Below are positions 33,482 through 55,300 of a stretch of DNA of 64,000 nt, piece by piece. The position numbers and the translations under genes are program-made. Numbering within the stretch: position 1 is the first letter of the stretch; each line of letters starts with the position of its first letter. The notes beneath the pieces are model-generated. The model was not told the origin of the DNA, did not search any database, and saw only the letters and a program-made list of their open reading frames with translations. The stretch comes from Escherichia coli (GTDB taxonomy: Bacteria > Pseudomonadota > Gammaproteobacteria > Enterobacterales > Enterobacteriaceae), in NCBI RefSeq assembly GCF_013315695.1, contig NZ_CP054353.1; one strand, written 5' to 3'.

Positions 33482-33545
33482 CAGCGCGTGAATGCGGGGC
33501 TGTTTTTCGGGAGGATGTCGCCACACAAAACACCAGGAGGTGCTC

Positions 33546-34727
33546 ATGAGTGAAACACGCTTTCACGGTGCACGCGTCAAAGAAAACACCGACCTTGTGA
33601 CCGCGATTAATGACATTGATTCCAGTGTCATCGGTATCGTGGCCACGGCGGACGATGCAGACAGCGACGCGTTCCCGTTAAACAAACCCGTATTGATCAC
33701 CCGCGTGGCGAATGTGCTGGGTAAGGCAGGCACAACAGGCACGCTGTACAAAACGCTCAAGGCGATTTCCGACCAGACCAGCCCGAAGGTTATCGTGGTG
33801 CGTGTGGCTGAAGCCGGAGAGGAAGGTGAGACACAGGATCAGCTTGTCATCGGTGGCTCGCAGGCTGACGGCAGCTACACGGGCATGTATGCCCTGCTGG
33901 TTGCTGAACAGGACGAGAGCATTGGTTACCGCCCGCGCATTCTGGCGGCTCCCGGCCTGGATACCGAAGCAGTCACATCCGCCCTGTGCGTCATTGCGGA
34001 CAAGCTCCGCGCCTTTGTGTACGCCGGATGTAACGGGTGCGACACGATGGCGGAGGCAATCACTTACCGTGCGAAGTTCTCCGCGCGTGAGCTGATGCTG
34101 CTGTGGCCTGACTTCATTGCCTACAACCCGGTGAGCGGAAATAACGAAACATTTCCGGCAGCGGCGTATGCGTGCGGGTTGCGTGCGCGGATTGACAGTG
34201 AACAGGGCTGGCACAAGTCACTGTCCAACGTGGCGCTGAAAAATGTTCTCGGTATGTCGCAGCAGGTGTTCTGGTCGTTGCAGGCCGAAGACAGTGATGC
34301 GAACAACCTGAACAACAAGGAAATCACCACGATTATTCGCCGTAACGGCTTCCGCTTCTGGGGGAACCGTACTGCCGAAACCAGCGACTACATCTTTGAG
34401 GTGTACACGCGCACAGCGCAGATTCTGGCAGATACCATCGCTGAGGCGCAGTTCGAAACCATTGACGAACCGCTGACCCCGGCGAACGTGAAGGACGTGA
34501 TTAGCGCCATCCGCGCAAAACTCAACGCCCTGGTCACCGCCGGGAAACTCATCGGTGCGGAGTGCTGGTATGACGTGCTGGACAACGGCACGACGGATTT
34601 GCGTCAGGGGCGCGTGCGCATCCGCTACAAGTACACGCCAGTGCCGCCGATGGAAGATCTGACGCTGTATCAGACCTTCACGGATGAGTATTTCGACTCC
34701 GCTTTTGCAACGCTGGGAGGTGCGTAA
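33546..34727 (+). CDS. contractile tail sheath protein (gpFI-like)
   Basis: Internal start MSETRFHGARVKE preceded by caggagg. FPLNKPVLITRV and the overall match to P2 FI. 393 aa. Confidence 0.9.
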   Translation: MSETRFHGARVKENTDLVTAINDIDSSVIGIVATADDADSDAFPLNKPVLITRVANVLGKAGTTGTLYKTLKAISDQTSPKVIVVRVAEAGEEGETQDQLVIGGSQADGSYTGMYALLVAEQDESIGYRPRILAAPGLDTEAVTSALCVIADKLRAFVYAGCNGCDTMAEAITYRAKFSARELMLLWPDFIAYNPVSGNNETFPAAAYACGLRARIDSEQGWHKSLSNVALKNVLGMSQQVFWSLQAEDSDANNLNNKEITTIIRRNGFRFWGNRTAETSDYIFEVYTRTAQILADTIAEAQFETIDEPLTPANVKDVISAIRAKLNALVTAGKLIGAECWYDVLDNGTTDLRQGRVRIRYKYTPVPPMEDLTLYQTFTDEYFDSAFATLGGA

Positions 34728-35243
34728 ATGGCTGTACCACGTTACGTTCGCCAGTTCACGCTGTTTGTGAACGGCAAAAACAAAATCGGCACGGTGACAG
34801 GCGTCACTCTGCCCAAGCTGACCCGAAAAACCGAAGCCTATCGCGGTGGCGGGATGCTGGGTGCGGTGCATATTGACCTCGGACTGGATGACGGCGCACT
34901 GGATGCCTCGTTCACCACCGGTGGGGTTGAAAAAGAGCTGCTCCAGGAATACGCCACTGACATTAACGAAGTGGCGCTGCGCTTTGTGGGTGAGCTGTTC
35001 ACCGATGGTGAGGAAAGTCAGCTCCTTGAGGTGGAGATGCGCGGACGCATCACGGAAATCGACCGTGGCGAAACCAAACAGGGCGACACCACACAGTACA
35101 CCTTCGCCGTCAAAAACACCTACTACAAGGAGTCGGTGGATGACAGTGATGTGACAGAAATCGACCTGCTGAACTTCATCTACAAAAAAGACGGCCAGAA
35201 CGTCTTTGGTGACCGCGTGAGTTCGGCGCTCGGTCTGAACTGA
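34728..35243 (+). CDS. tail tube protein (gpFII-like)
   Basis: 171 aa, immediately after the sheath gene. P2 FII size and position. Confidence 0.9.
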   Translation: MAVPRYVRQFTLFVNGKNKIGTVTGVTLPKLTRKTEAYRGGGMLGAVHIDLGLDDGALDASFTTGGVEKELLQEYATDINEVALRFVGELFTDGEESQLLEVEMRGRITEIDRGETKQGDTTQYTFAVKNTYYKESVDDSDVTEIDLLNFIYKKDGQNVFGDRVSSALGLN

Positions 35244-35289
35244 CAGCATTAACAGGGCGGCACATTGTGCCGCCACAGGAGAAAGAAAA

Positions 35290-35673
35290 ATGGCAGCAAA
35301 GAAAGATGACATCATGAACAGCGAAATCGTCGCAGGTGACACCACCACTGAAAACATCGATGTGGCAGAGGAAAAAACGGGGGTGAAGTTATCCTGCCCG
35401 GTGGTGCGTGGCGAACGCGTTATTGACTACGTGGAGATTGGCGAGGAAATCCGTCAGGCAGGCTCGTTGCGCGGGCTGTCTCTGATTGAGGTGCTGAACC
35501 TCAAAACGGACCCGATGATGACGCTGCTTTCGCGCGTGACCGCACCACGCCTGAAGCTGGCAGAAATCCAGACACTGGACACCGGTGATTTCGTGGCGCT
35601 GGCGACTATGGCTGCGAATTTTTTTGCTCCCACGGAGTCTGCGAAACCGTCCGTGGCGGTGATGGAAGCGTAA
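35290..35673 (+). CDS. tail assembly chaperone gpE-like (zero-frame product)
   Basis: 127 aa, between tube and tape measure. Contains the slippery run near its 3' end. Confidence 0.8.
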   Translation: MAAKKDDIMNSEIVAGDTTTENIDVAEEKTGVKLSCPVVRGERVIDYVEIGEEIRQAGSLRGLSLIEVLNLKTDPMMTLLSRVTAPRLKLAEIQTLDTGDFVALATMAANFFAPTESAKPSVAVMEA

Positions 35674-35837
35674 TCACGCTGGCGAAGTTCGACAACGTTG
35701 AAGAACTGGTCGCTGATATAGCAGTCGTGTTTAACTGGTCGCCCGGCGAGATATTCTCAATGCCTCTCGTCGAGGTGATGAGCTGGCGTGAGCGGGCGGC
35801 GCAACGTAGCGGAGTCCGCAACAGTGAAATCCCTTGA
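35290..35837 (+). CDS. gpE+E'-like fusion made by programmed -1 frameshift at T7G (about 35619-35626)
   Basis: After a -1 slip the frame stays open for 70 codons (..ITLAKFDNVEELVADIAVVFNWSPGEIFSMPLVEVMSWRERAAQRSG..) to the tga at 35835. This is the P2 E/E' and lambda G/GT paradigm. Confidence 0.65.
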
Positions 35838-38800
35838 TATTCGTGTCAGCTTTGGCGCAATTGACCGGCTGACATGCCCGACCGAAAACGCCCGCCGTCA
35901 GGTGGGCGCTCTCACTGAATCCCTTCAGAAGACGCAGAACAACATACAGGCGCTCGACAGACAGTCGAAGGTGTTCGATCGTGCCGCCGGAAATCTCAGT
36001 AAATACCGCGAACAGATTGCCCGCGCGGAGCAGAGGCTCGCCGGGCTGCGAAAGGCAGAGCAGAACGGTAACATCCTCTCCGAAAAGCAGCGCGAAACGC
36101 TGGCGGCACTCTCCGCGCGGCTTGAGCGCCTGAACGAGCTGCGCACGCGCGAGCGCGAAAAACTCCAGGCGGCGGCTGGCGAAATGCGTAAACATGGCAT
36201 TCTGCTTTCCGGCAGCAGCCGCACCATCGAAAGTGCCGTTCGTCGCACGCAGCAGTACAACGAGCAGCTCGAGCGTGAACGGCAGGCTCTGGCTCGCGTG
36301 ACGCAGGCACAGAGCCGCTATGAGGCCGCGAAGGCACAGGCGGAAAAACTGCGCAACACAGGGGCTGTGGCGATGGCGGCGGGTACAGGCGGCCTGTATG
36401 CGGCGCAGCGCATGATGGCTCCGGCGATGGAGTCCGAACAGCACGGTGCGGTCATCGCAGCCGGTTCGGGGGAAGGCGCACAGGATGGCGCACGTTACAC
36501 CCACATCATCCGTAACATACAGGCTGACGGTCTCGCTGATTTTGCCGGTGCTGCGGAGGCCGTGAGTGCGGTACGCAGCACGCTCGGCGCACTGGGCGAC
36601 ACCGGTGACAGGGAGCTTGAGCGCATCAGCCGTCGTGCGCTGGATATGCGGACCGTCTTTGGTGTTGATGTGCCGCAGAGCATTCAGGCCGCTGCCATCA
36701 TGATGAAGAACGGGCTGGCCGCCAGCAGTGACGAGGCTACTAACCTGATGACGGCAGGGATGCAGCGCATGTCCGCTGAAATGCGCGATGAACTGCCGGA
36801 AATTCTGCATGAGTATTCCACCCACTTCCGCAACATGGGCTTCACCGGCAGCGAGACAATGAGTCTGCTGGTTGAGATGGCAAAGCAGGGCAAGTTTGCG
36901 CTGGACAAAACCGGCGATGCCGTGAAGGAGTTCAGTATCCGTGGTTCGGATATGTCGAAATCCAGTGTTTCAGCGTATGAGACACTTGGCCTGAATGCCG
37001 AACGGGTGTCTGCTGCCATTGCTCAGGGGGGCAGTACCGCACGCCAGGCGATGCAGGTGACCGCCCGTGCACTGCTGGCCATCCGTGACCCGGCAGAGCG
37101 GGCGAACACGGCCATTGCGTTATTCGGCACCCCCGTTGAAGACCTTTCCGTTGACCAGATCCCGCAGTTCCTGAGGGCGCTGGCTGATGTTCGTGACAAT
37201 CTGGGCGATGTCACCGGTGTGGCAGACCGCATGGGGCAGACGCTGCGCGGTAATCTCTCCGGCGATATTCAGGCGCTGAGTGGTGCGTTCTCAGGGCTAC
37301 GCACGGACATCTTCGGTACTGTGACCGAGGATTTGCGCGGGCTGGTTCAGACGGTGAGCGCGTGGGTGACCCGGATGCGCGAATGGGTCGGAGAGCATCA
37401 GGCGCTGGTCAGGGTGCTGGTACTGGCGGGCGGGAGTGTTCTGGCGCTGTCTTCTACGTTCGGTGCGCTGTCACTGACGCTCGGGCTGATTGCGGGGCCG
37501 CTGGCAAAACTGCAACTGGGACTGGGGCTGCTGACGGGGGGCGGCGGCATTGGTGGTGCTGTCCGGCTTGTGTCTGCGATGGCGCTGCGCCTGACGGGGC
37601 TGCCTGCGCTGTGGGGGCTGGTCACGGGGGCGGTGTCGGTACTGGGTGGTGCAGTGGGGGCGCTGTTCAGCCCGGTCGGGCTGATTGTTGCCGCCCTGGT
37701 GGGCGGCGCGGTTCTGGTGTGGAAATACTGGGATCAGATCAGTGCGTTTTTTTCCGGCTTTTTTGCCGGAGTGTGGGAGGCGCTGCAACCGCTGCGGGAA
37801 GCCTTTGCGTCGCTGGCTCCGGTGTTCGGGCTGATTGGCGATGGCATCAAAGCCGTGTGGGAATGGTTCACCCGCCTGCTTGAACCTGCAAACGCCTCAA
37901 AAGAGACACTCGACAAATGCACCAGCGCCGGGGAGTCGTTCGGGAAAACGCTGGGGTGGGTCATTCAGAACATTGTGCTGGGGCCGCTGACACTGCTTCT
38001 TGATGGCCTCGGCACAGTGCTGAAGTGGCTGGGTGTTATCCCGGATGGCATCAGGGAAGCGCAGAAGGAGACGCAAAAACTCCAGGAGAGCGCCGCAAAA
38101 CAGGCCACACAAAAAGCGCCGGTTGCGTGGGAGTGGGATCCTGCACAGAAAAAAATGGTGCAGAAAACATGGTCGTGGTCATCAGATGCAGCGGAAAACA
38201 ACGGTGACAATAAACCCGCAATACCTGCCCCTGCGGTTCCCGGAGAGGTGAAGGGAACGTCAGACAATCCGGTCGGCAAACCCGGTAGTAAATCCCCGCT
38301 GGATGAGGCATGGTTCCGGCAGGGGATACAGAAAACCGCCAGCAACACCGGCGGGCTGCTTGAGGAAACCAAAAAACGTACTGGTCCCGGCGATATTGTT
38401 TTCAAAAACCTGCCCGGACCCGAAATCATTCACGGCGAGTGGAAAGCACCGCAGGTTATCCGGACAGTGCAGGCGGTATCGGCGGGCGGAGGACTGGCGG
38501 ATGCGCTGACAACGCTCTGGCAGAAACTCACCGGAAGACAGACTGCTTCACCCGTTCCGGTCGTGAATATTCCTGCGCCAGTGGAGAGAGTGGCACGTCA
38601 GGTATCCACGCTGCCACAGCCGCAGCACAACGAGGCAAATACAGAACTGGTTGCCGGTATTCAGCGCGTGCATGAGGCTGTGAACAGTCCGGGGGGAGAG
38701 ACGGTATCGCCTCCACCTGTGGTGAACGTTCTGATGCCAGCAGTGAATGTTCCTGCGCCAGTGGTGAGTGTGGCGCGTCAGGTATCCACGCTGCCGCAGC

Positions 38801-39288
38801 ACAACGAGGCAAATACAGAACTGGTTGCCGGTATTCAGCGTGTGCATGAGGCGGTGAACAGTCCGGGTGGAGAGACGGTATCGCCTCCACCTGTGGTGAA
38901 CGTTCTGATGCCAGCAGTGAATGTTCCTGCGCCAGTGGTGAGCGTGGCCCGTCAGGTATCCACGCTGCCGCAGCACAACGAGGCAAATACAGAGCTGGCT
39001 GCCGGTATTCAGCGCGTGCGTGAGGCTGTGAACAGTCCGGGTGGAGATGTGGCTTTATCTGTTCCTGTTGCGGAGGTTATCCGTCCACCGCTGCGACCGG
39101 AGTCCGTCAAAAAAGAAACCGCGCCACAAACGCAGGCTGCGGTATTTTCCGGTGAGATACACGTGCATCTGCACAACGTCAACACGCAGAATCCGCGTGA
39201 ACTGGCAAAACTGGTTGGCGAGGCTGTCCGCGAAGAGATGCGCAGACAGGTGCGTACAGGCATGAACAGCTTCCGTGACAGGGACTAA
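35788..39288 (+). CDS. tail tape measure protein (gpT-like), 1166 aa; start may be GTG 35824
   Basis: Long Ala/Gly/Leu-rich ORF with a central hydrophobic glycine-zipper region (..GLLTGGGGIGGAV..). Position between E/E' and U. Confidence 0.85.
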   Translation: MSGRRNVAESATVKSLDIRVSFGAIDRLTCPTENARRQVGALTESLQKTQNNIQALDRQSKVFDRAAGNLSKYREQIARAEQRLAGLRKAEQNGNILSEKQRETLAALSARLERLNELRTREREKLQAAAGEMRKHGILLSGSSRTIESAVRRTQQYNEQLERERQALARVTQAQSRYEAAKAQAEKLRNTGAVAMAAGTGGLYAAQRMMAPAMESEQHGAVIAAGSGEGAQDGARYTHIIRNIQADGLADFAGAAEAVSAVRSTLGALGDTGDRELERISRRALDMRTVFGVDVPQSIQAAAIMMKNGLAASSDEATNLMTAGMQRMSAEMRDELPEILHEYSTHFRNMGFTGSETMSLLVEMAKQGKFALDKTGDAVKEFSIRGSDMSKSSVSAYETLGLNAERVSAAIAQGGSTARQAMQVTARALLAIRDPAERANTAIALFGTPVEDLSVDQIPQFLRALADVRDNLGDVTGVADRMGQTLRGNLSGDIQALSGAFSGLRTDIFGTVTEDLRGLVQTVSAWVTRMREWVGEHQALVRVLVLAGGSVLALSSTFGALSLTLGLIAGPLAKLQLGLGLLTGGGGIGGAVRLVSAMALRLTGLPALWGLVTGAVSVLGGAVGALFSPVGLIVAALVGGAVLVWKYWDQISAFFSGFFAGVWEALQPLREAFASLAPVFGLIGDGIKAVWEWFTRLLEPANASKETLDKCTSAGESFGKTLGWVIQNIVLGPLTLLLDGLGTVLKWLGVIPDGIREAQKETQKLQESAAKQATQKAPVAWEWDPAQKKMVQKTWSWSSDAAENNGDNKPAIPAPAVPGEVKGTSDNPVGKPGSKSPLDEAWFRQGIQKTASNTGGLLEETKKRTGPGDIVFKNLPGPEIIHGEWKAPQVIRTVQAVSAGGGLADALTTLWQKLTGRQTASPVPVVNIPAPVERVARQVSTLPQPQHNEANTELVAGIQRVHEAVNSPGGETVSPPPVVNVLMPAVNVPAPVVSVARQVSTLPQHNEANTELVAGIQRVHEAVNSPGGETVSPPPVVNVLMPAVNVPAPVVSVARQVSTLPQHNEANTELAAGIQRVREAVNSPGGDVALSVPVAEVIRPPLRPESVKKETAPQTQAAVFSGEIHVHLHNVNTQNPRELAKLVGEAVREEMRRQVRTGMNSFRDRD
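38563..39050 (+). repeat. about 2.7 tandem copies of a 174-180 bp coding repeat within the tape measure gene
   Basis: Units start at 38563, 38743 and 38917 (gtgaat(a/g)ttcctgcgccagtgg..). Protein repeat: PAVNVPAPVVSVARQVSTLPQHNEANTELVAGIQRVHEAVNSPGGETVSPPPVVNVLM. Confidence 0.85.
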
Positions 39289-39301
39289 AGGAGACGCAAT
39301 T

Positions 39302-39760
39302 ATGATGATGATTTTTGGCATGTTTGTGTTTGAACTGAAAACGCTGCCGCATCAACAGATTCAACAAAACAAAACGTGGCGGCATGTGAAAAATGAGCGA
39401 ATCAACCGTTCTGCGGCCTGGCAGTATATTGGCGCAGGTGACGACCAGATCACGCTGTCCGGTCTGCTGTACCCGGAAATTACCGGCGGTGAGGTGTCGC
39501 TGACACTGCTGAACACCCAGGCCTACACCGGATGTCCCTGGCCGCTGATTGATGGTACGGGGCAGATTTACGGAATGTACGTGATTACGGGATTACAGAC
39601 CACCCGCTCCGAACTGGATCGCTACGGGAAGGCAAAAAAGATTGAGTTCTCCATCAGCTTTCAGCGGTGTGATGAGGATATGCGGGAGAGGCTTCAGTCT
39701 GCTTCTGCAGGTGATTTACTGAACACGCTTAAAGACAAAATGGCGATAGCGGCATTCTGA
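39302..39760 (+). CDS. tail protein gpU-like
   Basis: Internal start MMMIFGMFVFELKTLPHQQ after taaaggag. Resembles P2 U (MMVLGLFVF..TLPYQ..). 152 aa. Confidence 0.85.
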   Translation: MMMIFGMFVFELKTLPHQQIQQNKTWRHVKNERINRSAAWQYIGAGDDQITLSGLLYPEITGGEVSLTLLNTQAYTGCPWPLIDGTGQIYGMYVITGLQTTRSELDRYGKAKKIEFSISFQRCDEDMRERLQSASAGDLLNTLKDKMAIAAF

Positions 39761-39761
39761 A

Positions 39762-39793
39762 TAAAAAAAGAGGGAGTGTAAAAAGCACTCCCT
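39762..39793 (-). terminator. intrinsic terminator T1 (minus-strand polarity)
   Basis: The minus strand reads agggagtg-cttttta-cactccct followed by cttttttt. Confidence 0.65.
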
Positions 39794-39880
39794 TATTGCC
39801 TTCATGGAAAAGAAGCAAATGTTGTCAATACATTCTGACTATATATAAATCGCCCGATGAAGGCAATGGTGATGTTCGGG

Positions 39881-39907
39881 AAATAAAAAAGCCCTCACAA
39901 AGAGGGC
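39881..39907 (-). terminator. intrinsic terminator T2 (minus-strand polarity)
   Basis: The minus strand reads gccctc-tttgt-gagggc followed by ttttttattt. Confidence 0.7.
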
Positions 39908-40070
39908 GGCATGCATTGTGTGAAGATTTAATTTTTCTGCTTGCAGGGGGATTATATTGAACGGTATTCATTCAATGCAATATTTTTAATTGTCATTATC
40001 ATTAATGAAAATGTTTCTTGTGTTTTTGTTGCTCTGATTACAATCCCGTTTATTACTGTGTCTTTGCGGC

Positions 40071-40096
40071 AAAAAAAAAGCCCGCACGGGGCGGGC
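40071..40096 (-). terminator. intrinsic terminator T3 (minus-strand polarity), downstream of the tfa pseudogene
   Basis: The minus strand reads gcccgc-cccgt-gcgggc followed by T9. Confidence 0.75.
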
Positions 40097-40140
40097 AAAG
40101 AATGTTTGCATGTGTAGAACAGTGCGGGATTATAAATATA

Positions 40141-40710
40141 TTATGCGTTCTGAAAAGTCCCCTTTGATGGAGATTCAGGCCATACCAGCGCATTATAACA
40201 ATCTTTATTCATCACGGAAGTGAACGTCAACTGCTGAAGTTCCCTAATATATTCAATCCACGTAGCCAACCTTCCCTTGTCTGCATTGCTGATGGTGCCG
40301 GGCAATAACTCAGATTGCCAGATTCTGATCCTCTCTTTTGCCTCCGGCAGCAGGGGATTTCGTTGTCATTCTGCTTTAGCCTGCCACTTTTCAGGTGGCA
40401 GCACATGACGAACAATATTTTCATCATCAAATATCCAGTTACCTGAGTCATCAGCACGTTGGTTAGCGTTAATATCAGAAGTATTAACAACACTAAAACC
40501 GACATGATTAAGTGTTGATGCCTCTCTGGTAATGGTGACAATAATATTATTTCGTTGTAAATCATTTTGATTTTATCTGGTCGAAAGGTCCCTGCTTCGT
40601 TATGTCAGTTTTATCGCCTTCAGAGGAAACCAGATTACTTTGTGCTTCTTTTTCTAACACATACAGTCCCGGAGTTAATATTGCCTGTTTTATGTTCTTG
40701 AGTGCATCAT
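40141..40710 (-). pseudogene. P2 gpG-like tail fibre assembly (Tfa) gene, disrupted
   Basis: Pieces in shifted frames: (MM)..LKNIKQ.. ; ..NNIIVTITREASTLNHVGFSVVNTSDINANQRADDSGNWIFDD.. ; an in-frame TGA at 40366-40368 ; ..RLATWIEYIRELQQLTFTSV..ALVWPESP. Compare P2 G [44 protein letters not shown]..VD...PEWP (from memory). Confidence 0.7.
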
Positions 40711-40765
40711 ATTAATCTCTTACATATTGTATCTGGTGAAATTTATAATTTTCTGAAGCTGCCTG

Positions 40766-40905
40766 AAAGAATTGAGTTTCCTGCAGGCTTTCAATGGTGT
40801 GATGAGGATATGTGGGAGAAACTCCAGTCTGCTCCTGCAGGGGGGGCTTACTGAACACTATCAAAGACAAATCTTCGTCGTTGATCGCATTCCCTTAACC
40901 TGACG
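40766..40905 (+). pseudogene. duplicated, frameshifted 3' fragment of a second gpU allele (U')
   Basis: About 80% nt identity by eye to 39636-39760 (..attgagtt..ctttca..ggtgtgatgaggatatg.gggaga..ct.cagtctgct.ctgcagg..ttactgaacac...aaagacaaa). No 5' part, and a G-run frameshift. Confidence 0.7.
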
Positions 40906-40938
40906 CCACCACCCCACACAGATGACGGGGTGGTGGCG
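40904..40938. other. 12-bp perfect GC-rich hairpin between U' and the convergent tail-fibre-side genes
   Basis: cgccaccacccc-acacagatgac-ggggtggtggcg. No T-run on either side. Confidence 0.6.
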
Positions 40939-40943
40939 TGATT

Positions 40944-41240
40944 TCACCAGTAACTAACCAGCAGCCAGAACAACAGGCATATTGCCACTGGTGCAGCAAA
41001 ATCCATCAGGCTTCCGGCATCCCACACGCGCGGATCAAAACCACCCCACCAGGGCATGTTAATTCGTTTCCCTTTCCCGAATTTTTCAATCCAGCGATAT
41101 TCTGCCTGGGTGTGTTCACGCGCAATGAAGAACGAGCAACCGGCTATCGCTCCGTAAACCCAGTTTCCCGTAAGAATGCCAGCCAGTACCTGCGCAGCCA
41201 CGGCACAAAGTGCATGAAGGACAGGCGTTATATCCATCAC
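40944..41240 (-). CDS. small hydrophobic (2-3 TM) protein of unknown function
   Basis: 98-aa ORF, last gene of the tail-fibre transcription unit. Hydrophobic N- and C-termini (..VLHALCAVAAQVLAGIL.. / ..FAAPVAICLLFWLLVSYW). Confidence 0.6.
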   Translation of the reverse strand: MMDITPVLHALCAVAAQVLAGILTGNWVYGAIAGCSFFIAREHTQAEYRWIEKFGKGKRINMPWWGGFDPRVWDAGSLMDFAAPVAICLLFWLLVSYW

Positions 41241-41249
41241 TCCCTCCCT

Positions 41250-41528
41250 TCAGCTCCATTCCCGAAGCGGTGCTTCCAGCTCCACCACATAATCAGAGAA
41301 CACAGAAACATCAAACGTATCATCAAGAATACGAATGTTGACAAAATAACCGTCATTCCGGATACAGACAGGTTCTCCCTCTTCATTTTCCCCTGTTTCT
41401 GTATAGGTGAAACCAATTTCATCGACTAACAGTTTGTTCTGGAGGTCTTCATTTTCCTCCCAGCCAAGAGATGACAGGAGGGCTTTAAACTGCTGTTTGT
41501 CATGAAACTTCAAAGTCAAATCTTTCAT
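41250..41528 (-). CDS. 92-aa acidic protein, occupies the position of the tail fibre assembly gene but is not Tfa-like
   Basis: ORF overlaps the H stop by 4 nt (coupled). No gpG motifs. Confidence 0.6.
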   Translation of the reverse strand: MKDLTLKFHDKQQFKALLSSLGWEENEDLQNKLLVDEIGFTYTETGENEEGEPVCIRNDGYFVNIRILDDTFDVSVFSDYVVELEAPLREWS

Positions 41529-43306
41529 ATTGCCTCTCTTAATTGCCTGTCATTTAATTCTTTATGCCATATGCGGAAATTACGAATGTGACCAAACAGA
41601 TGTCGTTCTCCAGTACTCGTTCGCCCTCCAATACGGATAATTGCGGAGTTCTGAATATATGACCATGTGGTTTTTGTTTCGCCGGATAACCGTCCGTTAC
41701 TGACTGAGCATGTAGACTGATCTGACTTTACTCGCATCCCTATAACCATTTTTTCAAGTGATGCGTTTTCGTTTACCCGCATGTTAGCCCCGCCTATATC
41801 GCAATAAGGAAATCCGTCGTAATCCGTCGAACGACCGAATCCAAGAATAATTTCCTCTCCAGTTTGATGACCACTGGTATTAAGAACACGCGGTGCTGCA
41901 TTTGGCGTTTTATACCAGTTCTTATGTACCTCACAAAGAACAGTAAAAGGAGGATTATAAAGATTATTCTTAACCGGAACTGTCACAATATCACTTGCAC
42001 GTGTTGCTGGTGTTGCACCCGATATAATAAATGATGATGCGCAGGGGCCATTTTCAACCTGAGGGGTGGACAGGAAAACATAATCTCCTGATTCAACGAC
42101 ACCACCTTCTTTCGGAGTGTATTGTATTGCCGATGTTATGTAGGACTCATCAATTGCCTGAATCGTTGCCTCTGCAAAAATCCAGCCGGTAACCTCATCT
42201 TTGTTAACTCGGGCAGTGATCCTGTCGGCAGCTCCTCCTGTGATTTTAACTGATAAAGATCGCGTATTAACAATGGCATATCCAAGGTTAGATGATGTGT
42301 TGCCATCGTAAGATTCAAACCTGATCCTTAACATGAGTTCCAGATCAGTTTTAAATCTGCACGATGTCGTCACGCACTTATTATCGCCTGAAACATCGAC
42401 GGCTCCGGTTACTGCAACTGATGCCATGTTAACAGGCAGGGACTGCCCAATCAGAGAATCGTTACAGACGAACTTTCCATAGGTAAAACCAGAACTGTCC
42501 GTCCCGGTTTCGGGAACATCCATATTTACCGACTTGCCCCAGTTGACCGGGGTTTCCGAATTGAGCATGTAGTTTGTTCTTTGCCCTTCAATAAGCAGTC
42601 CATCGCGTTCAAATCGCGGCTCATTAATTTCAGCTATTTTCAGTTCACCGGATTTATTGATATAGGTTGCCGTTGATGCGCGACTGAAACTAACCTGTTT
42701 ATCACTGGCAACCTGAACCACATCGTCACCAATGGTGATTTTTTTATAGCCCGGTGCGAACCCCGTAAGCATATCCAGTGAATCGTTAAACGGTATCCAC
42801 ACATCAGGCAGCGGCGGTACAGACTCCTTTTCCTGCGCAACATATTCTTCAACATAGGCGCGGGTGGCGAGCACGACAGAGGGATCAACTTTCAGTTCGA
42901 CAGACGAAGCACTGGAAACCACAACAATCATGCGAATCGTCTGCGTGCGCCCGCTTCCCTCGGTGAGTACAGGCTTGTAGGTTTCGGGGCAGTTCGCCAC
43001 GGCAATCATCACGCCGTCGCTGTCAAAAAGCCCAATCTCGCGGATCCAGAACCCCCCTTTATCTTCCGGGATAATCATCTCGGCGATAAGCTGGCTGGCA
43101 TCAGACGCGCTGATGCTCAGTTGATTCAATGGGGCGCTGTATACCGTGTTCACCAGATTTTCCATGGAAGCCTCCGGTTCCGGCAGGCTGCCGCCGCCAT
43201 CCCCCAGTTTCATGGTGGTGATGGATATTTTCGAGCCGCTGGCCACCGCCTTTGCCAGACGGGCGGCACCCTTGTCAGTCAGAACAGAAAAATATTTTAC
43301 AGTCAT
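41525..43306 (-). CDS. tail fibre protein, gpH-like N-terminus with divergent C-terminal receptor-binding part
   Basis: N-terminal 150 aa align by eye with P2 H (..ITTMKLGDGGG.LP.P....L...V.......IAE..IP...GGFW.RE.GL.D..G..IAVAN..E.YKP...EGSGR.Q..R..). The C-terminus ends ..LFGHIRNFRIWHKELNDRQLREAI, which is LamG/ConA-like. Confidence 0.85.
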   Translation of the reverse strand: MTVKYFSVLTDKGAARLAKAVASGSKISITTMKLGDGGGSLPEPEASMENLVNTVYSAPLNQLSISASDASQLIAEMIIPEDKGGFWIREIGLFDSDGVMIAVANCPETYKPVLTEGSGRTQTIRMIVVVSSASSVELKVDPSVVLATRAYVEEYVAQEKESVPPLPDVWIPFNDSLDMLTGFAPGYKKITIGDDVVQVASDKQVSFSRASTATYINKSGELKIAEINEPRFERDGLLIEGQRTNYMLNSETPVNWGKSVNMDVPETGTDSSGFTYGKFVCNDSLIGQSLPVNMASVAVTGAVDVSGDNKCVTTSCRFKTDLELMLRIRFESYDGNTSSNLGYAIVNTRSLSVKITGGAADRITARVNKDEVTGWIFAEATIQAIDESYITSAIQYTPKEGGVVESGDYVFLSTPQVENGPCASSFIISGATPATRASDIVTVPVKNNLYNPPFTVLCEVHKNWYKTPNAAPRVLNTSGHQTGEEIILGFGRSTDYDGFPYCDIGGANMRVNENASLEKMVIGMRVKSDQSTCSVSNGRLSGETKTTWSYIQNSAIIRIGGRTSTGERHLFGHIRNFRIWHKELNDRQLREAI

Positions 43307-44079
43307 GAAAAAATCCTCAAAGAATCCTCCAGAAATACCACTGATGCTGTCAGGGTTCCGGTTGTGGCGGTCAGTTGCATCACCGCCTGTGGCTCCACGG
43401 TCACCGCATCATCGCCCGTAACCTGTAATCCCATGACAATCCCCGCATCGACAGATACCGACGGTGTCGGCGGGTAAATGGTGAGCATGTCGCCGTCAAA
43501 GAAAGCCGGAGATGCCCGGAACACCGAAACAGTCTCAACACCGGCAGAAGCGGCTGGCCAGATTGTTGTTTCACTGCCGTCGTGCATGCCGGAAAACACA
43601 CGTGCGACTCCCTGCGTATCCAGCATAATGTTCAGCGAGGCAAGGTGGCGGCTGACCGGACGGGCATCGTCGATCAGTCGTGTCAGCTCGGAGTACGTTT
43701 CCTCTGTGATACCCGCGTCCTGCACGCCAATATCAATGCGGAACGTGCCGCGCGGGTCGCCGTTCTGCCACCACTCCGTCACGTTAATGACATAGCCAAA
43801 GGGTTCAACCACACGCCTGATGGCGCTGATGGTTCCCTTATGGCGGTGGATTGCCCAGGCATCACGGATCACCTGGCGCTTTGTTTCTTCCGTCCAGTCA
43901 CGATCCCACCTGTCCACGGACAGCGCCCACGCCAGATAAGGCAGCAGGGCTGCCGGGCAGGTGTCAGGATCCCAGAGCTGGTTAAGGCTGACAGGTAATG
44001 CTGACAACCGGGCGGTTCCCCGCTCCACGCAGCGCATGAAATCGCTGGCTGAAGGGGGGAGAAGTGACGGTTCACTCAT
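43303..44079 (-). CDS. baseplate/tail fibre attachment protein gpI-like
   Basis: Internal start MSEPSLLPPSAS overlaps the J stop. The motif LLPYLAWALSVD.W is typical of the gpI family. Confidence 0.8.
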   Translation of the reverse strand: MSEPSLLPPSASDFMRCVERGTARLSALPVSLNQLWDPDTCPAALLPYLAWALSVDRWDRDWTEETKRQVIRDAWAIHRHKGTISAIRRVVEPFGYVINVTEWWQNGDPRGTFRIDIGVQDAGITEETYSELTRLIDDARPVSRHLASLNIMLDTQGVARVFSGMHDGSETTIWPAASAGVETVSVFRASPAFFDGDMLTIYPPTPSVSVDAGIVMGLQVTGDDAVTVEPQAVMQLTATTGTLTASVVFLEDSLRIFS

Positions 44080-52087: not shown

Positions 52088-53842
52088 GTGACAGACGGCA
52101 TGATTCAGGACGCATTCATCAGGCTGCGGGCAAAACAGCTTTACTGGCAGGGTTACCCGCCCGCTGAAATATCGCGGCTGATGGGTATCAGTCAGAACAC
52201 GATTTATTCGTGGAAAAAGCGCGACGGATGGGATGAAACGCCGCCCGTGGAGCGGGTCACGCAGTCGATTGATGCGCGACTGGTTCAGCTGACCTCAAAA
52301 GCTGAAAAGAGCGGCGGTGATTTTAAGGAAATCGACCTGCTGACACGCCAGCTCGCAAAACTGAATGACAACAGGGGTGGAGCGGAAAAAAGCCCGCGAA
52401 AACGAAAGCTGAAAAACCATTTTTCCGAATCGCAGGTTGCCGCACTGCGCGAACACATCACCGGTCAACTGGCAGAGCATCAGCGACGCTGGTATGAGGC
52501 GCTGGAAGTCTGCCGTCGTGCCGGTGTTGATATTCGCATCATTGTGAAATCCCGACAGATAGGCGCGACCTGGTATTTTGCGCAGGAGGCACTGCTGCGT
52601 GCGCTGGATGAGAGCGTGAAATATCCGTACCAGCGAAACCAGATTTTTTTGTCAGCCTCGCGCCGTCAGGCTTTTCAGTTTAAAGGCGTGATTCAGAAGG
52701 CGGCACAGGCTGTGGATGTCGAGCTGAAAGGCGGTGACAAAATTGTGCTTTCCAACGGCGCGGAACTGCATTTTCTGGGGACATCCGCCGCGAGTGCACA
52801 GTCATACACGGGCAATCTGTATTTTGACGAATTTTTCTGGGTGTCGAACTTCATCACGCTGCGCAAGGTGGCAGGTGCGATGGCCACGCTGAATGGCCTG
52901 ACGCAGACCTACTTTTCCACGCCGTCATCGGAGATGCACGAGGCGTTTCAGTTCTGGAACGGCGCGCGGTGGAATGCCGGGCGACCACGCAGTGAGCGCA
53001 GGGAGATTGATGTGTCCCACCGCGCCCTGAAGAGTGGAGTGCTGTGCCCCGACAGTGCGTGGCGGCAAATCGTGACGATTCAGGATGCAGTGGACCTGGG
53101 CTGGACGCTCACCAGTATCGACAAAATCCGCAACATGAACTCGCCGGATGAGTTCCGCAATCTCTACATGTGCGAGTTTGTCAGCGACGGCGAATCCGCC
53201 TTCGACCTTAATGCCCTGCTGGGCTGTGGCGTGGATGGCTATGACGAGTGGAATGACTGGAAACCGTTCGCAGCACGTCCGGTGGGTAATCGTCCGGTGT
53301 GGATTGGCTACGACGCTAACGGCAGCAGCGGTAACGGCGACAGCGGGGCGCTGTCTGTTGTTGTACCGCCTGCTGTCAGGGGCGGCAAATTCCGCACGGT
53401 GGAGACGTTGCAGGTGCAGGGGCTGGAATTTGAAGAGCAGGCCCGTGTGATTGAACAGTTCACGCACAAATACAACGTCCAGCATATTGGTATCGACGTG
53501 ACCGGCGGTAACGGCGAGGCGGTGTACCAGATAGTGCGGCGGTTCTGGCCTGCCGCCGTACCGTACACGTTCACGCTGGCATCCAAACGCGCGCTTGTGC
53601 TGAAGATGTTGCAGATTATTCGTGCGGGGCGCTGGGAGTATGACCGGGGCGAACGTGAGCTGGTCAGGGCATTCAACGCCGTGCGCAAGGCAAAAACGGC
53701 GGGCGGCGCAATAACGTATGAAACAGACCGCACGCGCGGCGTAAACCACGGCGACCTCGCGTGGGCAACCATGCTTGCCGTCATTAACGAGCCGCTGGGC
53801 GATGAGGACGGTGCAACAGGAATGCGGGTGATTGAGTTCTGA
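52088..53842 (+). CDS. terminase large (ATPase) subunit gpP-like
   Basis: 584 aa, divergent from O and followed by the portal gene, as in P2. Confidence 0.9.
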   Translation: MTDGMIQDAFIRLRAKQLYWQGYPPAEISRLMGISQNTIYSWKKRDGWDETPPVERVTQSIDARLVQLTSKAEKSGGDFKEIDLLTRQLAKLNDNRGGAEKSPRKRKLKNHFSESQVAALREHITGQLAEHQRRWYEALEVCRRAGVDIRIIVKSRQIGATWYFAQEALLRALDESVKYPYQRNQIFLSASRRQAFQFKGVIQKAAQAVDVELKGGDKIVLSNGAELHFLGTSAASAQSYTGNLYFDEFFWVSNFITLRKVAGAMATLNGLTQTYFSTPSSEMHEAFQFWNGARWNAGRPRSERREIDVSHRALKSGVLCPDSAWRQIVTIQDAVDLGWTLTSIDKIRNMNSPDEFRNLYMCEFVSDGESAFDLNALLGCGVDGYDEWNDWKPFAARPVGNRPVWIGYDANGSSGNGDSGALSVVVPPAVRGGKFRTVETLQVQGLEFEEQARVIEQFTHKYNVQHIGIDVTGGNGEAVYQIVRRFWPAAVPYTFTLASKRALVLKMLQIIRAGRWEYDRGERELVRAFNAVRKAKTAGGAITYETDRTRGVNHGDLAWATMLAVINEPLGDEDGATGMRVIEF

Positions 53843-54891
53843 TGAAAAAACAAAAACGAAAATATACCCGCCGCGATGACGGCGTGGAGCTGGCAGAGGC
53901 ACTGCGCCGCCAGCCGTCGTTAAGCGCCTTCTCGTTCGATGGCCCTTACGATGCGCACGCGCTCGACCTGCTGGATAACGCATACTGCCTGAGTAACGGC
54001 AGATACTATGAAACGCCCGTTGACTGGTACGGGCTGGCGCGGGCATCCCGGCAGACCTCGTGGCATCAGTCGGCGCTGTACTTCAAACGAAATGCCATTC
54101 TGGGCTGCTTCATTCCGCACCGGCTGTTGTCCCGGCAGGCGTTCTCCGCCTTTGCGCTGGACTGGTTTGTCTTCGGGAATGCGTTTCTTGAACTGCGTAC
54201 CAACAGGCTGGGCGGAAAACTGGAACTGCGCCATGCCCTGGCAAAATACGTCCGTCGTGGTGTTGAGCCGGATGTGTACTGGTTTGTGCAGACGGGCGAG
54301 CAGGAGCACGAGTTCCGTCAGGGGCGCGTCTGTCATGTGCTGAACCCTGACATCAACCAGGAGATGTACGGAATGCCGGAATATCTCGGCGGCCTGTTGT
54401 CTGCCAGTCTGTCGCATTCGGCAGATCGTTTTCGCAAACTCTACTATGACAACGGTTCACACGCAGGCTGCATTATTTACGTGGGAGCAGCACAGGTTGA
54501 CCGCGAAAGCATGCAGGCGCTCGAAAGAGCGTTGCAGGGCGCAAGAGGCGGTGGGGCATTCAAAAACCTGCTGCTCCAGGCACCGAACGGCGGGAAGGAC
54601 GGTGTGCAAATCCTGCCGTTCCAGCAGATCACCGCCCGGGATGAGTTTATGAACGTCAAGGCTGCCTCCCGCGATGATGTGCTGGCTGCTCACCGCGTAC
54701 CACCACAACTGATGGGCGCAATGCCCAGCGGACAGGGGTCATTTGGTGATGTGGAGAAGGCGGCAAGAGTGTTTGCGATCAACGAACTGATGCCGGTGAT
54801 GGAGGCGATGAAGCACGTTAATGACTGGCTGGGCGAGGAGGTGATCCGCTTTAACCCTTACGCACTGCTGGATACCCCGCCCACATCCTGA
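53842..54891 (+). CDS. portal protein gpQ-like
   Basis: 349 aa. ATGA-coupled to P. Confidence 0.9.
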   Translation: MKKQKRKYTRRDDGVELAEALRRQPSLSAFSFDGPYDAHALDLLDNAYCLSNGRYYETPVDWYGLARASRQTSWHQSALYFKRNAILGCFIPHRLLSRQAFSAFALDWFVFGNAFLELRTNRLGGKLELRHALAKYVRRGVEPDVYWFVQTGEQEHEFRQGRVCHVLNPDINQEMYGMPEYLGGLLSASLSHSADRFRKLYYDNGSHAGCIIYVGAAQVDRESMQALERALQGARGGGAFKNLLLQAPNGGKDGVQILPFQQITARDEFMNVKAASRDDVLAAHRVPPQLMGAMPSGQGSFGDVEKAARVFAINELMPVMEAMKHVNDWLGEEVIRFNPYALLDTPPTS

Positions 54892-54918
54892 CGCGCTCCG
54901 CTTGTCTGCTGCTTCGCC

Positions 54919-54941
54919 GGGGCATAAAAAATTTATGCCCC
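54919..54941 (+). other. 10-bp hairpin after the portal gene
   Basis: ggggcataaa-aaa-tttatgcccc. Confidence 0.6.
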
Positions 54942-55169
54942 GACTCACCAGCTCCGGTGTGTCACGCACCAGGCATCTCAGGGATCTACCAGGTTGAATA
55001 ACCTGTCAGCACACGCCGCACCAAAGCGCATCACAGGGCGTGTGATGCATCAGCCCATACTTCACACACAACCAATAAAACATCGCGTCAGGGGCGCAAT
55101 CAGCCGCATTTCTGGCGATTTCTGAGGGTGCTTTCAGACCCCAAATTGCGGGCTGTTCCCCGGCACCTG

Positions 55170-55300
55170 CGCGCAGAAAAAACGCGTTTTTTTGTGCACG
55201 CACGGATCCTTGACGGATCCAGCCGCCACGGGGGCCGGAAGGGCAAAAAGTCGTTCAAAAAAATTGTGCAAATTTGTGCACTATTGTGCAGTAGAGCGAT
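55170..55300. other. presumed cos / packaging-site region with repeats
   Basis: Position after Q as in P2. agCCGCCACGggggccggaagggc loosely resembles the complement of the remembered 186/P2 cohesive ends. Palindrome a6cgcgt7. acggatcc x2. TTGTGCA x4. Confidence 0.3.

Follow-up and report, generated by a model that had tools for sequence, protein, structure and literature searches.

It is textbook knowledge that P2, Mu, P1, and lambda share mosaic fibre genes. Temperate phages and tailocins alter their host range mainly by exchanging fibre modules, an exchange that is usually inferred from identity breaks only. The horizontal exchange of tail-fibre genes among these phages and the T-even phages is reportedly the subject of classical studies of P2 H and G that Haggard-Ljungquist and colleagues published in 1992, and the shuffling of fibre motifs is said to have been reviewed by Sandmeier in 1994. 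In this study, we analyzed a 64,000-nucleotide stretch of Escherichia coli DNA (contig NZ_CP054353.1, hereafter the window, to which all coordinates refer) that carries a P2-like prophage. Between the tail gene U and the tail fibre gene H of this prophage lie a dead tail-fibre assembly gene (psi-tfa), the last codons of an earlier H, and a stray copy of the 3' end of U (U'). The reading that we favor, with moderate confidence, is that positions 40141-40939 are the scar left when two related P2-like genomes, each with its own type of fibre module, recombined through a single illegitimate (unequal) crossover.

The locus resembles the classical P2, Mu, P1, and lambda exchanges in that a conserved baseplate-binding N-terminus is combined with an exchangeable distal part and its accessory gene(s), in that phages of different families are involved (here, a P2-type N-terminus carries a lambdoid distal part), and in that the old tfa and the end of the old H resemble their counterparts in P2, P1, and Mu. 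It differs from those cases in keeping leftovers that mark the junction (the inactivated tfa, with 17 codons from H and 44 from U') and in that the new module brings two non-Tfa accessory genes. The side-tail-fibre (stf) module of lambdoid phages (phage 21, mEp460, ev017, and PhiR57_1) likewise combines a distal stf, a 92-amino acid (aa) protein, and a 97-aa membrane protein; the version in the window is instead fused to a P2-type N-terminus within a myovirus tail cluster, and the lambdoid phages have neither the hairpin nor the U' fragment that lie beside the module here. A fibre-module gene that was inactivated by a frameshift and is carried as a pseudogene is also found in lambda PaPa, whose stf, compared with that of Ur-lambda, was inactivated in a laboratory lineage (PMC11990801), but there a single lesion affects the fibre gene itself, whereas in the window ten lesions affect the chaperone gene and the partner fibre has been replaced. 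The case is one of ordinary fibre mosaicism, a well-preserved further example rather than a new kind, and it leaves current understanding unchanged.

On its left side, the window consists of E. coli chromosome, with thrS-infC-pheS-pheT 100% identical to E. coli MS 21-1, and the P2-like prophage extends from ~32 kb onward, as judged from the genes in the window and the annotation of close relatives. In this prophage, FI-FII-E-T-U (33492-39760, plus strand) converge on R-S-V-W-J-I-H (minus strand, ending at 41525). The convergent layout was found in all of the 80 best IMG/VR relatives of U with a long enough flank, and it is therefore a family trait and not a local rearrangement. The scar region, from the U stop to the last gene of the fibre operon (orf97), spans 1.2 kb, and the following features border or compose it.

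39275-39760, plus strand: tail gene U, intact, the last gene of the FI-FII-E-T-U block (Pfam PF06995 Phage_P2_GpU, E 9e-40)
39761-40140, no strand assigned: spacer between U and psi-tfa (terminator scan, comparison with relatives)
40141-40710, minus strand: psi-tfa, of the P2 G/Caudo_TAP type (peptides, codon-guided alignment, Pfam, match to P2 G)
40712-40765, minus strand: old H remnant, the last ~17 codons plus the TAA stop at 40714-40712 (blastn, stop/start layout)
40766-40898, plus strand: U' fragment, ~44 codons from the 3' end of a second U, closed by its own TAA at 40896-40898 (alignment to U)
40903-40939, no strand assigned: hairpin flanked by the stop codons of U' and orf97, in which 40903-40915 and 40927-40939 pair as a perfect 13-bp stem (folding)

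The original prediction, made from the sequence alone, placed pieces of a gpG-type tfa on the minus strand of 40710-40141 together with an in-frame TGA, and both were recovered. The three minus-strand frames of 40100-40760 hold the peptides LKNIK, NNIIVTITREASTLNHVGFSVV..RADDSGNW, and WPESP; P2 G matches 40638-40422 at 76% nucleotide (nt) identity; and the repaired translation of psi-tfa matches Pfam PF02413 (Caudo_TAP) with 59.3 bits (cut-off 22.1, E 5.5e-16). The N-terminal half, which resembles P2/P1/Mu-type tfa, was aligned by codon using the tfa genes of E. coli AR_0069 and of a P2 variant as guides (77-78% nt identity, codons 1-98), and the C-terminal half, which resembles the tfa of E. 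coli 135, was aligned with that gene as guide. This alignment revealed seven frameshifting indels, all in the first 55 codons (near 40701, 40687, 40676, 40654, 40629, 40615, and 40552), and three nonsense codons (TAA at 40613-40611, TGA at 40607-40605, and the in-frame TGA at 40368-40366). The stretch 40141-40710 is a pseudogene of the Caudo_TAP family and not a working member. A 112-aa open reading frame (ORF) at 40227-40565 was rejected as an out-of-frame artefact within psi-tfa; it has no family matches. When analyzed against relatives, the C-terminal remnant of psi-tfa has a ratio of nonsynonymous to synonymous substitution rates (dN/dS) of 0.25-0.45, compared with 0.04-0.07 for U, which points to relaxed selection on the remnant.

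As the prediction also held, psi-tfa is orphaned from its fibre gene: 815 bp separate it from the present H, and a second, partial U 3' end lies between them. It stands directly 3' of a fibre gene only as a fossil, in that the stop of the old H abuts the tfa ATG. This remnant of the old H, which the earlier account had overlooked, is revealed by blastn alignments that cross 40712-40765 and match junctions annotated as tail fiber protein followed by tail fiber assembly protein in E. coli AR_0069, P1, a P2 variant, and SfMu; its stop and the tfa start read TAAT-ATG, as they do at the AR_0069 and P2-variant junctions. The ortholog of the remnant in a prophage of E. coli ST131 reads QKYLNGT, compared with a fibre C-terminus of QKYINGTWYNV. 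With the old H remnant at 40712-40765, the junction between old H and U' can be placed at 40765/40766, to within a base or two.

On the other side of this junction, the proposed similarity between U' and U was clear in a pairwise alignment of 39637-39739 with 40766-40871, which scored 107 when 500 shuffles gave a mean of 16.8, an sd of 2.1, and a maximum of 26. By blastn, U' is 79-82% identical at the nt level to codons ~118-161 of U, and its reading frame is open from 40766 except for one frameshift in a G-run at 40840-40846. U' lacks homology to the rest of U (PF06995); the sequence 5' of 40766 is old H, and U' is a gene fragment only. It is closest to the U of its own family (80% nt identity; 69% aa identity to the U in the window versus 47-66% to other U proteins), and, among the 80 relatives of U from IMG/VR, a second U 3' end is confined to scar-bearing loci. 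Gene callers start U at 39302 in identical loci, giving a 152-aa protein, and it is annotated as "phage tail protein" in E. coli relatives. Separately, we observed that G-run lengths vary among otherwise identical assemblies (G6, G7, and G9 in U' at 40840-40846, and +2 in the hairpin at 40927-40930), which would reflect either neutral slippage or homopolymer sequencing noise.

The intact order U, tfa, H that was expected in a relative is present in E. coli 135 (NZ_CP080260.1, locus L002), where U is followed by a spacer, an intact 187-aa tfa, and a 1079-aa H. This prophage shares with the window the convergent layout, the backbone (FI to T and I to V, at 94-99% identity), U, the spacer, and the C-terminal half of tfa (~88% identity); it differs in that its tfa is intact and adjoins the fibre gene and in that the U' fragment, orf97, and a second small gene of the present fibre module, orf92, are absent.

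The same junction of old H and U' was found in three other prophages. In those of TUM9803 and SWHEFF_58 (loci L001 and L003), the scar is ~91% identical to that of the window and an orf97 homolog adjoins it, but, unlike in the window, the fibre tip is different and psi-tfa has lost 40370-40548 and ~40570-40725, both deletions being flanked by short direct repeats (ATTTCGTTGT at 40360/40549, and TATCTGG); SWHEFF_58 has, in addition, an extra stop codon inside the tfa remnant. In the ST131 prophage (NZ_OX637961.1, locus L036), the scar is ~70% identical and psi-tfa has an internal deletion of ~350 bp. Its U copy (U'') keeps its own U-like terminator, different from the hairpin in the window, which directly abuts an orf97 homolog (78% aa identity), and this homolog is followed by a different, 948-aa fibre, with no orf92. 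A scar of the ST131 type with the U'' terminator was also observed in two defective prophages from IMG/VR (L039 and L040), where it abuts sequence matching window positions 53338-55291 (terminase/portal), a large deletion having removed the fibre, baseplate, lysis, and head genes.

The independent deletions and the extra stop in these sister lineages bear out the idea that the stranded chaperone gene decayed, which it did independently in each lineage. Because the junction is common to prophages that are 70-91% identical in the scar, the event predates the diversification of the family; the scar arose a single time, before several E. coli prophage lineages diverged from their common ancestor, and has been inherited since. 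It cannot be called a dated snapshot of module exchange, as had been suggested, since the event is old and inherited. Left of orf97, the fibre and the fibre tip have been exchanged again since the scar formed. All P2-like carriers of orf97 that we found share the old-H/U' junction. Two of the 80 best IMG/VR orf97 loci are P2-like, and both have the scar; no P2-type U, I, or H N-terminus was seen in the other 78, 74 of which have stf-distal, orf92, and orf97 homologs in the lambdoid order.

The genes of the present fibre module, which lies to the right of the scar in the coordinates of the window, are listed here with the adjoining gene I.

41525-43306, minus strand: fibre gene H, 593 aa, a chimera (Pfam PF12571, phrog_1419, DNA homology)
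41250-41528, minus strand: orf92, encoding a small acidic protein, directly downstream of H (phrog_1361, E 3.6e-42)
40944-41237, minus strand: orf97, the gene that ends the present fibre operon, predicted to encode a small membrane protein (phrog_1443, E 1.5e-52)
43303-44079, minus strand: baseplate gene I, 258 aa, compared with 177-179 aa in relatives (comparison with relatives)

Residues 1-149 of H constitute a P2-type tail-collar N-terminal domain (Pfam PF12571, E 1.1e-56), residues 148-593 match phrog_1419 (E 6e-214), and residues 238-437 match the NCBIfam family GTA_spike_fiber. At the DNA level, H codons ~162-593 (41525-42820) are the distal part of a lambdoid side tail fibre, and 40955-42820 is 76-85% identical, with the same gene order, to phage 21, mEp460, ev017, PhiR57_1, and others. 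This lambdoid homology takes in orf97, orf92, and distal H, leaves out the hairpin and U', and stops at ~42820; phrog_1419, phrog_1361, and phrog_1443 are all present and the lambdoid module order is kept. These matches show H to be a P2-type N-terminus fused to a lambdoid distal part, with the break at codons ~150-163, which agrees with the prediction of a chimeric H that changes at the end of its conserved N-terminal domain. The proposal that a single event had its left crossover inside H is not supported, as the nearest break in identity to tfa-type relatives, and also to ST131-type relatives, is in gene I, at ~43609-43639. The fusion of H to stf may be an event separate from the scar.

Other features of these genes were noted. 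The start of H overlaps the stop of gene I. Relative to TUM9803, H is 94-96% identical in its proximal part and 67-78% identical over codons ~250-420, and ~41605-41961 is unalignable, a pattern that indicates a further, more recent exchange of the receptor-binding region within the lambdoid-type part of H. An extension of ~80 residues in I holds a second DGDxxTIYP-like motif, and the Prokaryotic Genome Annotation Pipeline (PGAP) labels the I orthologs in TUM9803 and SWHEFF_58 as truncated pseudogenes. A second scar formed through the duplicated C-terminal motif of I was considered and rejected, there being no DNA-level repeat (score 14 versus a shuffle mean of 14.7).

Homologs of orf92 were found in E. 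coli and Shigella only, and its AlphaFold model (predicted local distance difference test, pLDDT, of 90) has no fold match in the PDB at E<=0.001. In lambdoid phages, orf97 is 75-83% identical and located after the side tail fibre gene, and the phage 21 homolog is annotated as "putative membrane protein." Neither orf92 nor orf97 belongs to a Pfam or NCBIfam family, and, when both were considered as fibre chaperones, they showed no homology to Tfa, T4 gp38/gp57A, or the intramolecular chaperone domain, a comparison that included the fold of orf92. It is linkage alone that suggests a role for the two as fibre-assembly accessory genes. Proteins like orf97 (35-60% identity) occur without a linked fibre or orf92 in Comamonas, Pantoea, Silvania, Aeromonas, Leclercia, and jumbo Aeromonas phages. 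Because orf97-like genes occur in such settings, orf97 may be cargo in its own right and not a helper of the fibre.

The crossover that we consider probable would have involved one parent with the order U-spacer-tfa-H, still held by E. coli 135, and a second with the order U'-hairpin/terminator-orf97-(orf92)-H', in which the distal fibre was of lambdoid side-tail-fibre origin. It would have joined H of the first parent, at a point 17 codons short of its end, to U' of the second, at ~codon 118. The recombinant would have kept a working set, to which one side gave T and U and the other gave orf97, orf92, H, and I, along with useless leftovers, namely a tfa without its cognate fibre, the old H tail, and the U' tail. 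With no cognate fibre to fold, tfa would have been freed from selection and would have decayed, through frameshifts and stops in the lineage of the window and through microhomology-flanked or internal deletions in the sister lineages.

The original prediction had a donor segment replacing the end of the resident H. As module exchange this holds in outline, but the assignment of donor and resident is not supported: the structure of the product cannot decide which parent was which, and no collection searched yielded a genome with an intact U' beside the cassette. Sliding identity is 79-94% over 39300-41600 versus 95-99% over most of the flanks in scar-bearing and intact relatives alike, and, as the profile is the same in both, it does not tell donor from resident. 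The description of the U-proximal border as a recombination hotspot is no more than suggested by the U-to-fibre interval, which is very variable among the 80 relatives, but use of the 3' end of U is seen once only. Two opposed tfa genes were observed downstream of U in nine family relatives (L047, L061, L078, L082, L086, L092, L094, L096, and L116); by analogy, such a pair is typical of invertible fibre segments of the Mu G or P1 C type and would represent another host-range switch at the same position.

The second parent was sought in 5,426 complete E. coli genomes, 50,697 phage records, GTDB species representatives, IMG/VR, and an index of 5.8 billion proteins, and a clean, intact U'-hairpin-orf97 arrangement was found in none of these. 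With 40711-40960 as the query, blastn returned only the family's own U (~80%) and three scar-bearing strains from the complete E. coli genomes, and nothing from the phage records. The 19 loci with orf97 relatives in GTDB species representatives have no U gene nearby, and back-translated U'-specific and hairpin patterns retrieved only the same prophage, or nothing, from IMG/VR. A repaired 43-aa U' peptide had one match in the protein index, a 66-aa product of a 550-base contig that is 100% identical over 60% of the query and is presumably a call on the same U' remnant. The 80 relatives of U and 80 relatives of orf97 from IMG/VR contained neither the clean arrangement nor a duplication intermediate.

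Several observations weigh against a crossover between two parents. One parent is hypothetical, since no collection holds a clean orf97-type P2-like genome. The old H remnant is short and marginal on its own (score 25 versus 14.5 +/- 2.3 for shuffles, z ~4.5). The 20% divergence of U' from U approximates neutral decay since the event and fits a duplicate of the resident U equally well. Lastly, the dN/dS of the tfa remnant is below 1, so that part of its divergence may predate inactivation, or weak constraint may persist.

Some of these points are shared by an alternative that we consider unlikely, though it deserves weighing, in which a duplication came first. Here, unequal exchange between sister copies of a tfa-type genome would have duplicated the stretch that begins at ~codon 118 of U and stops 17 codons short of the end of H, giving U-spacer-tfa-deltaH joined to deltaU'-spacer'-tfa'-H, and spacer'-tfa'-distal H would later have been replaced by a lambdoid-type orf97-orf92-distal fibre; the upstream tfa would have been redundant at first and useless afterwards. 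This series of events would explain why a clean orf97-type P2-like parent is absent from every collection searched and why the U that U' most resembles is that of its own family, and it fits a U' divergence of 20%, close to neutral drift given the 9-30% divergence of the scar between lineages. It also fits the ST131 U'' terminator, which is laid out like the resident U terminator (TGAA, A-run, GC stem). However, once the second parent exists, the two-parent crossover needs fewer illegitimate joins, by at least one; the 80 relatives include no intermediate that combines two tfa-type modules with a U' fragment; and the hairpin after U' in the window is unlike the terminator after U.

This hairpin had been predicted to be perfect with a 12-bp stem; it is perfect, and the stem is 13 bp. 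The RNA has a folding free energy of -30.8 kcal/mol (z -4.6 versus shuffles), but 40903-40939 lacks a U-tract on both strands, was not called by the terminator scan, and does not qualify as a rho-independent terminator. It would act at most as a stem-loop at the operon end, a candidate role. In TUM9803 and SWHEFF_58, the stem has a compensatory pair of changes (C>T at 40914 and G>A at 40928), which hints that the stem-loop may have been maintained despite having no U-tract. The AT-rich spacer at 39761-40140 contains three consecutive minus-strand hairpins that resemble intrinsic terminators (39771-39793, 39891-39907, and 40080-40096), the last of which is the old terminator of the H-tfa operon; the scan found 7 sites in the region versus 1.5 expected. 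The spacer is 86-92% identical in all E. coli relatives, including the one with an intact tfa, and is better conserved than the neighbouring scar in ST131 (~70%). No significant Rfam family was found over 39500-41300.

A broader claim, which we hold to be quite improbable, is that the scar records the single founding entry of a lambdoid (siphovirus) module with two accessory genes into a P2-like (myovirus) family, that all P2-like carriers of orf97 descend from it, and that the leftover, consisting of the C-terminal 70-74 codons of tfa and the terminator-rich spacer, has been kept because it serves the new operon, as its 3' end or as a small protein.

Retained function by itself, whether as a small protein translated from the C-terminal 70-74 codons of tfa or as the 3' untranslated region of the fibre operon and its terminator cluster, both supplied by the remnant and spacer, is less probable still. 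It would be consistent with the dN/dS of 0.25-0.45 for this remnant, with the preservation of the C-terminal part in TUM9803 and SWHEFF_58 where the rest is deleted, with the annotation of a 70-aa product by gene callers, and with the better conservation of the spacer than of the U'/old-H part of the scar in ST131. Transcripts also probably run on to 40080-40096, as the hairpin after orf97 has no U-tract. However, the 70-codon frame starts at CTG with no evident start signal, it contains a stop in SWHEFF_58 and has indels in ST131 that leave ~40 codons, and we know of no role for a Tfa C-terminal domain without its cognate fibre. That the lesions are sequencing or assembly errors in an intact, expressed tfa at 40141-40710, which would have undone the original prediction, can be dismissed even with several of them in short A/T runs, because three of the ten are stop-creating base substitutions, all ten are identical in ten independent assemblies from different projects (which agree over 40100-40960 except for homopolymer length and one or two single-nucleotide polymorphisms), and sister lineages have deletions in the same gene.

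The P2-like backbone of the prophage has no DNA-level match among sequenced phages, and region 39700-41000 is present at >90% identity in none of the 5,426 complete E. coli genomes, despite a host backbone that is 100% identical. In the index of a wider collection, 153 blocks contain the exact orf97 protein; the 23 contigs read carry it, and the nine places shown are of this prophage type. Elsewhere in the tail cluster, the tape measure gene T (35788-39288) has internal repeats in its 3' part (38557-39056), and its product varies in length among near-identical prophages (1166, 1154, 1096, and 1094 aa, with several ORFs in one genome, L006).

At this locus, the junction of a fibre-module exchange itself survives, and it can be set beside an intact comparator and three sister lineages in which decay has reached different stages. 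It provides a teaching case in which one border of an exchange can be illegitimate rather than homologous and in which a chaperone gene dies after its fibre is replaced. The scar is a lineage marker for this family of E. coli prophages, including that of ST131, and codons ~150-162 of the P2-type fibre are a natural fusion point for a lambdoid distal part, which may serve fibre engineering.

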